The notes under the pieces are model-generated. The model was not told the DNA's origin and ran no database searches. It was given only the letters and a program-made list of their open reading frames with translations. Below, one piece after another: positions 11,556 to 25,517 of a DNA stretch of 62,074 nt (positions are counted from its first letter, which is position 1; each line of letters begins with the position of its first letter). Origin of the DNA: Candidatus Hadarchaeota archaeon (GTDB lineage: Archaea; CAYQAE01; CAYVLA01); assembly GCA_964621445.1 (NCBI GenBank), contig CAZUNO010000017.1, positions 1 through 62,074 of the forward strand. Reading direction: 5' to 3'. Made by a program: the position numbers and the translations under genes.

Positions 11556-11904
11556 GGTCGGGAGGGAGAGAGCGGCCATCGGACCTTCGGGAACCGAGGA
11601 AAGTCCCCCCTCCATCCGAAAATGCGAGTGGGAGAACCCACCGAGAGAGATCTCGAGCTCTGGAACAGAAACGACACGGCCGTCGACATGGGTATGATGG
11701 GAAAAGATCCAGGGGTGACCCCGGGAAACGACCCGGACGACGTCGGCGGATTCGATGGAACGGCGAAACTTCGCAGGAGCAAGCCGAAACGAGGCCCATG
11801 AGCTTCGGACGAGGCCTGGGTACGGTGCTCAGTCAAATGCTGCAAGCCATTTCGGGGTGATCCGGAACGGGTAACAGAAGGGGGCTTACTCCTCCCACCC
11901 GACC
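11556..11904 (+). ncRNA. rnpB: Archaeal RNase P RNA
   Basis: GAGGAAAGTCC near the 5' end and AACAGAAGGGGGCTTA near the 3' end (P4); terminal P1 pairing GGTCGGG.GGGAG / CTCCC.CCCGACC. Confidence 0.93.
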
Positions 11905-11977: not shown

Positions 11978-12029
11978 TAAGGCCCAGTTCGTCAAAGCCC
12001 TAAGAAGATCCGCTAGGTTTCGGCGCGGC

Positions 12030-15055
<3,026 letters not shown>

Positions 15056-15197
15056 CTACTAACTAGCTTTACTTCTTCGGATTACTCCGAACTGGGCCTG
15101 TGACTCACCCACATCGAACGGAACGAGCGATGAGATCTTCACTCGGGAGCTCGGCCCCGAAGGACCGATTGCTCGCGAGTTGCACCATGGACCGATA

Positions 15198-15270
15198 TGG
15201 ACCGGCCGGGACTTGAACCCGGGGCCTCAGCCTCGCAAAGGCCGTGCTCTACCAACTGAGCTACCGGCCC
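15198..15270 (-). tRNA. tRNA-Ala(TGC) in the 16S-23S spacer
   Basis: GGGCCGGTAGCTCAGTTGGTAGAGCACGGCCTTTGCGAGGCTGAGGCCCCGGGTTCAAGTCCCGGCCGGTCCA cloverleaf. Confidence 0.97.
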
Positions 15271-15333
15271 ATGGAATGGTTATGATCTCGGCCCCCTTTT
15301 GGCGGTGGAATTGGCTCCACCGAAATGGAATTA

Positions 15334-16849
<1,516 letters not shown>

Positions 16850-17060
16850 TTTTAACTGGTCACATGCTTCCTTTGCCAGGGGGCCGAGATCATGCATCAA
16901 ACCCAAAGAGCGCGTTAACACTCGGAACTTGGGTCCTCATTCCTTTATCATGACGCGGATTCAGTCCATCAATGTAGGCCATTTGGCCACCCTCCGGACC
17001 GACGCCGAAAAGAAGCGCCATGATTCCGTTAGTCTAAGTTAATATCCTAGTTACGCGCAT

Positions 17061-17080
17061 CTATCTTAAAAATATTTCTT
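17061..17080 (-). promoter_or_regulatory. Candidate BRE/TATA promoter of the rRNA operon
   Basis: AAGAAATATTTTTAAGATAG on the minus strand, about 210 nt upstream of the 16S. Confidence 0.55.
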
Positions 17081-17190
17081 AAGGCAATTTCCGTTGCCCA
17101 CAAACGCTTCATAGAGATGTATCTCAAGCTAACCTAAAAAACCTCTCTTTAGACCCCTGCCGTGACAAATGTCCGGACCCGGATCAAAAG

Positions 17191-17322
17191 CGCTTGCCGG
17201 GGAGCAAGGAAGCCCTTACTCCCACCCGGCCGGGATTTGAACCCGGGTCTTGGGAGTGACAGTCCCAGATGATTGGTCTCCCGCTTATCCAAAGCGGGAT
17301 TAGGCCACTACACTACCGGGGC
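17191..17322 (-). tRNA. tRNA-Asp(GTC) with two introns: 21/22 (17273-17300) and 70/71 (17194-17224)
   Basis: Spliced: GCCCCGGTAGTGTAGTGGCCTA^TCATCTGGGACTGTCACTCCCAAGACCCGGGTTCAAATCCCGGCCGGG^GCG; full 7-bp acceptor stem and G73 discriminator appear only after removing both. Confidence 0.92.
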
Positions 17323-17349: not shown

Positions 17350-17368
17350 TTTTAATAAATATTTTCGG
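17350..17368 (-). promoter_or_regulatory. BRE/TATA promoter of tRNA-Asp
   Basis: CCGAAAATATTTATTAAA about 30 nt upstream of G1. Confidence 0.65.
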
Positions 17369-17428: not shown

Positions 17429-18982
17429 TTGAGCGCCAAGGAAGAGGTCGCCAGAAGGATCATTGAGGGTATTCTTTCCGGTAGGATAGAGAACCGGGAG
17501 CAGGTCCAGAGATCCAAGCTTGACCTGGCCAGGGAGTTCGGACTCTCGGGACTTCCCTCCTCCCTTTACGTGCTGTCCAGGGCCAGATCCACGGAGAGGG
17601 AAAGGGTTCTACCATTGCTGATGAAAAAACCCACCAGGACAGCTTCCGGGGTTTCCATAATTGCCGTTCAGACCTCTCCCCTACAGAGTTGCCCCGGAAA
17701 CTGCATCTACTGTCCCAGCTTCTCAAATGCGGCCAAGAGCTACACCGGCCATGAACCCGCATCAATGAGGGCCATCCAATGTGCCTACCGCCCTGGGCGT
17801 CAGGTGTCCACCAGGCTGGAACAGCTTAGGGCCATGGGCCATGAGGTGTCGAAGATAGAGCTCATAGTCCAGGGGGCCACCTTTCCCGCCATGGACGCCT
17901 GGTACCGGAGATGGTTCGTGGCCCGCTGTCTGGATGCCATGATAGATTTTGGCAATCCGGAGAGCCGGAAAAGAACCCTTGGCCGGGCCAAGATGCTTTC
18001 CCAGGAGGCCGAGGTAAGGCCGGTGGGGATTACCTTCGAGACCAGACCCGATTTCTGCGACCTGGAATCCGCAAGGTTGATGCTTCACATGGGGGCCACC
18101 AGGGTGGAGATGGGGGTCCAGACCCTTGACGACGAAATTTATGACCGAACCCAAAGGGGGCATGCGGTAGCCGACGTCTCCCGGGCCTTCAAGGCCCTGA
18201 GATCCGGTGGACTCAAGATATGCGCCCACATGATGCTAGGACTCCCCGGTTCCAGCAGACAAACCGATATCACCTCCTTCCAAAGGCTTTTCAACGACTC
18301 CAGATTCAAGCCCGATGAGCTCAAGATCTATCCTACCCTGGTTATCATGGGCACCAGGCTCTACGAGATGTGGAGAAGCGGGGATTACACCCCGCTGACC
18401 GATGAACAGGTCATGGATAGGCTCCTCCAAATCAAGAGGGAGGTACCACCATGGGTGAGGATAAAGAGGGTCATGCGTGACATCCCGTCCCAGATGATAT
18501 CCGCCGGACCGAGAAGATCGGATATGCGGAACCTGGTGCAGAGGGCCATGGAAAAGAAAGGAACTAGATGTAGATGCATAAGGTGTCGCGAGGTAACGCG
18601 TGCCGGCGATGAGGATCACCGGTTTGAGGTCACCGAAAGGTCGTATCCCGTTCAGGGCGGCCAGGAGGTTTTCCTGTCCTTTGAGGACCCGGAATCGGAG
18701 ACCCTTGCCTCCTTCCTGAGGCTGAGCCTGGCGGGAGACGAGGCCCGCATTAGGGAGCTACACACCTACGGAAGGGTAGTGGGCGTTGGTGACTCTCCCT
18801 CCCCCTCCCAGTTCCAGCACCGGGGCATGGGCCGTGAGCTGGTCCAAAGGGCGGAGGAGATCTGCGCCGACGGGGGAAATGACCTCATCCAGGTTACCAG
18901 CGGTCTCGGGGCCAGGGAATACTACCGGGACCTGGGCTACCGTCTTAAGGAGCCCTATATGGTCAAGGAGCTCTCCGCCTGA
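17429..18982 (+). CDS. elp3: tRNA uridine(34) acetyltransferase Elp3
   Basis: KPTRTASGV, CPGNCIYCP, KSYTGHEP, ETRPD, LKIYPT, IRELH, FQHRGMG. Confidence 0.95.
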   Translation: MSAKEEVARRIIEGILSGRIENREQVQRSKLDLAREFGLSGLPSSLYVLSRARSTERERVLPLLMKKPTRTASGVSIIAVQTSPLQSCPGNCIYCPSFSNAAKSYTGHEPASMRAIQCAYRPGRQVSTRLEQLRAMGHEVSKIELIVQGATFPAMDAWYRRWFVARCLDAMIDFGNPESRKRTLGRAKMLSQEAEVRPVGITFETRPDFCDLESARLMLHMGATRVEMGVQTLDDEIYDRTQRGHAVADVSRAFKALRSGGLKICAHMMLGLPGSSRQTDITSFQRLFNDSRFKPDELKIYPTLVIMGTRLYEMWRSGDYTPLTDEQVMDRLLQIKREVPPWVRIKRVMRDIPSQMISAGPRRSDMRNLVQRAMEKKGTRCRCIRCREVTRAGDEDHRFEVTERSYPVQGGQEVFLSFEDPESETLASFLRLSLAGDEARIRELHTYGRVVGVGDSPSPSQFQHRGMGRELVQRAEEICADGGNDLIQVTSGLGAREYYRDLGYRLKEPYMVKELSA

Positions 18983-25355: not shown

Positions 25356-25444
25356 GCGGCCGTGGTCTAGTCCGGTTAGGACCTGAGCTTCCCATTCTAA
25401 AGAGGAGATAGCTTAAAGCCCGGGTTCAAATCCCGGCGGCCGCA
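25356..25444 (+). tRNA. tRNA-Gly(CCC) with canonical 37/38 intron (25395-25409, 15 nt)
   Basis: GCGGCCG acceptor, TGAGC-TT-CCC-A^intron^A-GCTTA; BHB helix TTCC/GGAG. Confidence 0.93.
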
Positions 25445-25517
25445 CCTTCGATTTCCACTCCCGTTGGAAGGATTTATCATCACAACCAAACCGCCTTTCA
25501 GTGGCGATTGGATCTTG

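Follow-up and report, generated by a model that had tools for sequence, protein, structure and literature searches.

A candidate tRNA-Asp(GUC) gene with BHB introns at 21/22 and 70/71 and a conserved trailer complement in a Candidatus Hadarchaeota archaeon

The locus described here lies in a stretch of 62,074 nucleotides that was analysed as a whole (the window) and is best read as a working, single-copy tRNA-Asp(GUC) gene with two BHB introns, the second of which, at position 70/71 in the 3' strand of the acceptor stem, would be spliced with the aid of a trailer element before the ends of the tRNA mature. We put the probability of this reading as a whole at about 0.8. Judged from its sequence in this genome and in relatives, the 70/71 intron is a real and conserved feature of the gene and is very probably spliced out by EndA; that the introns of this gene do undergo splicing we regard as highly probable. 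The positions of all features are collected in Table 1.

Table 1. Features of the tRNA-Asp locus, its surroundings and related genes of the same genome; positions refer to the window unless a contig is named.
Feature	Position	Strand	Description
tRNA-Asp(GUC) gene	17191..17322	-	three exons and two introns, 132 nt, no encoded CCA
Exon 1	17301..17322	-	acceptor 5' strand, D-stem 5' strand, D loop to A21
Intron 1	17273..17300	-	28 nt, at 21/22 in the D arm
Exon 2	17225..17272	-	D-stem 3' strand, anticodon arm (GTC), variable loop, T arm, acceptor nucleotides 66-70
Intron 2	17194..17224	-	31 nt, at 70/71 in the 3' acceptor strand; 10-bp inner stem, GCTT loop, central-helix 3' strand CGGC, bulge AA
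Exon 3	17191..17193	-	G71, C72, G73 (GCG)
Trailer element	17176..17185	-	GATCCGGGTC; 5 nt after G73; complements tRNA nucleotides 45-55
Partner of trailer element	17240..17249	-	GACCCGGGTT; variable loop, T-stem 5' strand, T54-T55
A/T-rich box	17350..17360	-	ATTTATTAAAA; about 30 nt upstream of G1
RNase P RNA gene	11560..11900	+	in the window, beside the rRNA operon
rRNA operon	12023..16849	-	16S, tRNA-Ala, 23S
tRNA-Ala	15197..15271	-	within the rRNA operon
Elp3-like gene	17429..18982	+	radical SAM and acetyltransferase domains; divergent, adjoins tRNA-Asp
tRNA-Met(CAU) gene	contig C12, 42265..42074 (locus L035:125-316)	-	four introns
EndA, epsilon2-type	contig C9, locus L032:520-2043	+	
EndA, two-unit	contig C2, locus L031:1468-2589	-	

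Read on the minus strand from 17322, the locus presents an acceptor 5' strand (GCCCCGG), an interrupted D arm, an anticodon arm with GTC and a T arm, downstream of which follow CCGGG, 31 nt (17224..17194), GCG (17193..17191) and CTTTTG. Unspliced, the 3' strand is unable to pair with G1-C2; once the 31 nt are excised, a 7-bp acceptor stem followed by the discriminator G73 is regained. A BHB intron at 70/71 with a last exon of 3 nt had been claimed in the first-pass annotation of this DNA, and both the sequence and the motif proved to be as drawn there. The D arm, however, contains a further intron (17300..17273) that this annotation had overlooked and without whose removal tRNA-Asp forms no cloverleaf. 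Excision of both introns in silico gave a tRNA of 73 nt which, scored by ARAGORN with CCA appended, folds perfectly as a cloverleaf, with all four arms and an acceptor stem of 7 bp. The anticodon GUC, G73, C38 and the G10.U25 pair, which are identity elements of tRNA-Asp, are all present in the spliced product, and two intron-less archaeal tRNA-Asp genes have the same D-stem 3' strand (TCAT), G10.U25 pair, C38 and G73.

Three splice registers were tried for the D-arm intron, each of which led to a cloverleaf in ARAGORN. Register 21/22 was chosen because it obeys the BHB rule and agrees with the intron-less homologues; cutting by this rule leaves TCAT as the 3' strand of the D stem. The motif has bulges TA^A and AA^T (the caret marking the splice site), an inner stem of 8 bp and a central helix which is GGCC/GACC with a C.A mismatch in this genome and GGCC/GGCC in most relatives.

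At 70/71 the outer helix consists of 2 bp only, C63-G73 and G64-C72, both invariant across the 12 distinct sequences compared below. In the central helix G65-C66-C67-G68 is paired with CGGC, the bulges are GG^T and AA^G, and the inner stem has 10 bp, one U.G pair among them. The motif is strict in this genome (GCCG/CGGC), and no alternative cut register restores the acceptor stem, the first base of the intron being T and its last A. As a chance control the 75 nt after G70 were shuffled 20000 times, a strict motif being defined by a 4-bp helix, an inner stem of at least 5 bp, an outer helix of at least 2 bp and the restoration of 7/7 acceptor pairs. A strict motif with restored acceptor stem appeared in 69/20000 shuffles and a relaxed motif in 5396/20000, so that a relaxed match by itself carries little weight. 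Since the motif alone is weak evidence, the case for the 70/71 intron rests on the comparison with relatives, and it is the conservation of the sequence among them that we consider decisive.

The two-intron tRNA-Asp gene is present in all three of the other genomes of the same family with 81-83% identity. In metagenome contigs a pattern scan matched 12 loci, 10 of which were the two-intron gene and two of which were rejected as unrelated sequence. The comparison set comprised 14 loci with 12 distinct sequences, all from one small lineage, so that the counts obtained from them are not independent. Across these sequences the exons, including the terminal GCG, are invariant or nearly so (exon 1 nearly, exon 3 in 12/12), with divergence beginning directly after G73, and the intron loops and flanks are variable. 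The precursor structure set out above forms standard pairs in 93.5% of cells; three of its pairs are changed on both sides (6 cells), a cell count reached by 0/500 shuffles. Pairing in the inner stem of the 70/71 intron reaches 99.2% of cells, and three sequences show a compensatory exchange of A:U to G:C there; the bulges, spacing and inner stem obey the BHB rule in 12/12.

The weak point of the motif is the partner of G65, which is C in this genome only, U in one relative and A in the remaining 10 of the 12 distinct sequences. The central helix is completely paired in 2/12 sequences, by a G:C pair in this genome alone, and the G.A mismatch in 10/12 makes the motif a relaxed one in most relatives. 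An earlier description of the BHB as 'textbook' holds for this genome, where the motif is strict, but not for those 10. Contigs from two other studies contain the intron-bearing gene over 17160-17276 with three differences, one of which makes the partner of G65 an A. No intron-less joint was found in the DNA contigs of four runs. The phylum set comprised five genomes; in G004, which alone represents the neighbouring family, neither BLAST nor a search for the anticodon arm with 2 mismatches allowed turned up a recognisable tRNA-Asp. A pattern match in a draft of Vulcanisaeta distributa was rejected as a run of extra G with no intron. The tRNA-Glu(CUC) genes of the relatives (L060, L061 and L062, from G003, G001 and G002) resemble tRNA-Asp and are interrupted in the D arm by an intron at a comparable position; their 3' acceptor strand is uninterrupted.

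A scan of 48 T-arm sites for BHB motifs starting in nucleotides 65-72 yielded one further gene whose 7/7 acceptor stem needs splicing, that of tRNA-Met(CAU). Its introns of 25, 55, 17 and 21 nt lie in the D loop and at 37/38, 45/46 and 68/69, respectively. The four-intron gene is kept in 3/3 family genomes, and the spliced product is a perfect cloverleaf in 3/4 genomes, namely the three that were parsed correctly, an intron border having been mis-parsed in G002.

Both genes with an intron in the 3' acceptor strand carry in their 3' trailers, starting 5 nt past the discriminator, a complement of the T-stem 5' strand. The helix so formed is 10 bp long in tRNA-Asp (17185..17176 with 17249..17240) and 11 bp in tRNA-Met, and among the helices between a trailer and its own T stem at 45 T-arm sites these are the tied second longest (10 bp) and the longest (11 bp), respectively. 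Chance pairing is raised in tRNA-Asp by the palindromic core CCCGGG; in relatives, where there is no palindrome effect, the complement reaches nucleotides 39-55 and up to 17-18 bp. Over the 12 tRNA-Asp sequences 90.4% of the cells of this helix are paired. The energy of the trailer duplex was equalled or bettered by at most 7/500 shuffled trailers in 10/12 tRNA-Asp sequences and by at most 3/500 in 4/4 tRNA-Met sequences. Of the four substitutions found in the tRNA-Met trailer among relatives, three leave the pairing intact, and the fourth (in G002) unpairs the terminal pair, shortening the helix from 11 to 10 bp.

The 70/71 BHB uses the 3' strand of the T stem and the first acceptor nucleotides (63-68) and therefore competes with both the T stem and the acceptor stem. 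In two-dimensional folding models at 37 C the precursor is predicted to keep its T arm when the trailer is left out; with the trailer included, the T stem is predicted to be open in 12/12 sequences and the trailer to be paired to nucleotides 38-55 in 11/12. In the same models addition of the trailer makes the BHB fold cheaper in both genes: its ensemble cost goes down from 2.2-6.2 to 0.9-1.8 kcal/mol in 12/12 tRNA-Asp sequences, and from 4.4-10.7 to 0.7-2.7 kcal/mol in 4/4 tRNA-Met sequences. We are inclined, by a small degree, to regard the trailer as a splicing helper. There is about an even chance that introns of the 3' acceptor strand are accompanied by a dedicated cis helper of this kind, in which the trailer would unzip the T arm and offer its 3' strand as one side of the BHB. 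That a trailer complement is conserved in both genes suggests a refolding that is encoded in the precursor and that would force splicing to come before end maturation. Splicing ahead of end maturation had already been proposed for tRNA-Asp in the first-pass annotation, and it is consistent with the anatomy of the gene, in which the outer helix uses C72-G73 and a conserved element of the trailer joins the fold.

It is possible, though unlikely, that the 70/71 intron is spliced and the trailer complement has no role in this, being instead a terminator or stability hairpin, a 3'-processing signal, a means of rRNA-promoter regulation or a remnant of the origin of the intron. In tRNA-Met a T run stands directly after the element, much as in a terminator hairpin, but the partner of the trailer is the tRNA body and no local hairpin is formed. 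After splicing in silico the trailer helix remains the predicted fold in 8/12 tRNA-Asp sequences, a persistence that sits badly with a transient helper; an acceptor stem is formed in 3/12, and only in this genome is the full cloverleaf the minimum-energy fold. Against a role unconnected with splicing stand the lowering of the cost of the BHB fold in 16/16 sequences and the distribution of the element, which at the 45 T-arm sites occurs in exactly the two genes with an intron in the 3' acceptor strand and at the same 5-nt spacing; 2/12 tRNA-Asp trailers fit such a role better, being beaten by as many as 91 and 132 of 500 shuffles.

The standing of the locus as the only tRNA-Asp gene was assessed over the whole genome, in which 999 sites were found that resemble a GUC anticodon arm, whether or not interrupted by a canonical intron. 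A loose T arm followed downstream in 29 of these, and the sole tRNA-like site of the 999 was the locus at 17322..17191, so that no other tRNA-Asp gene is recognisable by a search that required an intact anticodon arm and T arm in an assembly that is 96% complete. A second 'Asp' call by ARAGORN (contig C5, 169963..170052, +) was rejected, being really a tRNA-Val with anticodon CAC and an insert in the D arm. In raw DNA of the tRNA-Asp locus ARAGORN calls a wrong 'tRNA-Asp' of 77 nt (17223-17299) with a poor acceptor stem, and the Rfam tRNA model has no match there at gathering score or at E 0.001, bearing out the expectation of the first-pass annotation that standard tRNA finders would mis-call such a gene. 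For the whole genome, ARAGORN reports 42 tRNA genes and Rfam gives 37 matches. ARAGORN found no gene for Asn, Cys, Gln or His anywhere in the genome; hidden tRNA genes must therefore exist, and further heavily disrupted ones probably lie among them. A tRNA-Gly gene (25356..25446, +) with a 15-nt intron is given the anticodon TCC by ARAGORN without the intron option and CCC with it.

These gaps leave some room for the view that the locus is a decaying or silent pseudogene and that a functional tRNA-Asp is hidden in the 4% not assembled or has been disrupted beyond recognition, given that the assembly is 96% complete, that other tRNA genes are hidden from ARAGORN (Asn, Cys, Gln, His) and that the search demanded both arms intact. 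We nevertheless hold this to be very improbable. Neither stem-breaking exon changes nor patchy presence was found, the exons being practically invariant over 12 distinct sequences in which the intron loops and flanks change, and the gene occurring in 3/3 family genomes. Such changes as occur in stems are compensatory or preserve wobble pairs, the relatives retain the synteny and a promoter-like box, and the spliced product carries all the features of intron-less tRNA-Asp genes.

With respect to splicing and processing enzymes, the genome encodes a three-unit EndA of the epsilon2 type, which is a full-length match to the ARMAN-2 enzyme 4fz2 (E 4.6e-74), and a second, two-unit EndA of 373 residues whose C-terminal half is nearest to catalytic subunits of heterotetrameric enzymes. 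There are also genes for RtcB, for RNase Z and for a CCA-adding enzyme of the archaeal type. The 373-residue protein resembles a fused beta-alpha form. The epsilon2 enzyme of ARMAN-2 is described as cutting both strict and relaxed BHB motifs in vitro (PMC3239211). That the 31-nt insert escapes EndA, the tRNA working with an aberrant 3' end or the insert being taken off by end-processing nucleases, would be in keeping with the short outer helix and with the central-helix mismatch of most relatives, but it is scarcely credible given that the unspliced 3' strand cannot pair with G1-C2, that end processing cannot re-attach GCG, which is yet invariant exactly to G73, and that bulges, spacing and inner stem fit the BHB rule in 12/12 sequences.

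Taking the locus as a working gene with two introns and a trailer that aids splicing, the following course of events may be proposed, the order of the steps being one that we infer. The precursor would be transcribed from the gene's own promoter with both BHB introns, at 21/22 and 70/71, in place. The trailer element would pair with the T-stem 5' strand (45-55, in relatives 39-55), leaving nucleotides 63-68 free to enter the BHB. EndA would cut both 3-nt bulges of each motif, and RtcB would ligate the exons, joining the final GCG onto G70. Only after splicing would the acceptor stem and the T arm form, and RNase P, RNase Z and the CCA-adding enzyme would then finish the ends.

The A/T-rich box ATTTATTAAAA is likely, on its sequence and placement, to be the archaeal TATA box of the tRNA-Asp promoter, and similar boxes occur in relatives at an equal distance from the gene. 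In 4/4 family genomes a distance of about 275-340 nt separates the tRNA-Asp gene from the 16S rRNA gene downstream of it. Between the two, some 60-70 nt after the tRNA, there is a conserved box (17060..17090 of the window, -; GGTAAnATTTTTAA in relatives) which is probably the rRNA promoter, in which case tRNA-Asp would be a separate transcription unit. The neighbours include, in addition to the rRNA operon, a PHP-domain gene and the Elp3-like gene, the latter belonging to a family of tRNA modification enzymes. No integrase was found within about 2 kb of tRNA-Asp and no homing endonuclease adjoins it.

The introns described here have counterparts among known ones. Like the non-canonical BHB introns of tRNA genes in Thermoproteales and other archaea, they have two 3-nt bulges round a 4-bp helix, occur several to a gene and share the presumed enzymes. 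The positions reported for non-canonical archaeal tRNA introns run from 20/21 to 59/60 'etc.', with an extreme at 3/4 (Yoshihisa, 2014; PMC4090602), and the 3/4 intron with its first exon of 3 nt is a mirror image of the 3-nt last exon at 70/71 (PMC4090602). As far as those listed positions go, 70/71 differs in lying in the 3' acceptor strand and in another lineage; its BHB also borrows the T-stem 3' strand, and a trailer appears to assist it. Acceptor-stem introns as such are already a known class, being named as one in a 2025 paper (PMC12397907), and tRNAscan-SE 2.0 extends its candidates by 60 nt for introns 'near the 5' and/or 3' ends' (PMC8450103). The statement in the first-pass annotation that no known position falls in the 3' acceptor strand goes further than this literature bears out. 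No text naming 70/71 or a trailer helper was found in the literature searched, a scope that excludes the main intron catalogues and their supplements; within that literature, it is the conserved trailer complement in both genes with a 3'-acceptor intron that is without description.

ARMAN-2 is similar in that this genome has a full-length relative of its epsilon2 EndA and many disrupted tRNA genes. The introns given for ARMAN-2 are at 37/38, 53/54 and 59/60, with no acceptor-strand intron or trailer element described in the portions of PMC3239211 consulted, and the genome studied here differs in having a second, two-unit EndA. The split tRNAs of Nanoarchaeum equitans and the permuted tRNAs offer another likeness, since in them, too, sequence outside the mature tRNA builds or stabilises the splice motif (PMC4090602). 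In the account given there the flanks of split and permuted tRNAs pair with each other and are removed by the cut, whereas the trailer of tRNA-Asp acts in cis, pairs with the T-stem 5' strand and lies outside the intron.

On this reading, an intron of an archaeal tRNA can be placed as close as three nucleotides to the 3' end, and an essential, single-copy tRNA-Asp then depends on splicing before either of its ends is matured. Genes of this kind are mis-called or missed by common tRNA finders, and the tRNA inventories of uncultured archaea are distorted as a result. The trailer, if its proposed role is true, is a testable case of precursor sequence outside the tRNA steering the fold towards a splice motif, and would help to explain how an intron persists where its motif competes with the tRNA's own stems. 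It would amount to a precursor-encoded folding switch for tRNA splicing, present in two unrelated tRNA genes of the lineage. Studies of the co-evolution of splicing enzymes and introns thereby gain a further lineage, one that has been little studied and that combines an endonuclease of the epsilon2 type with heavily disrupted tRNA genes.
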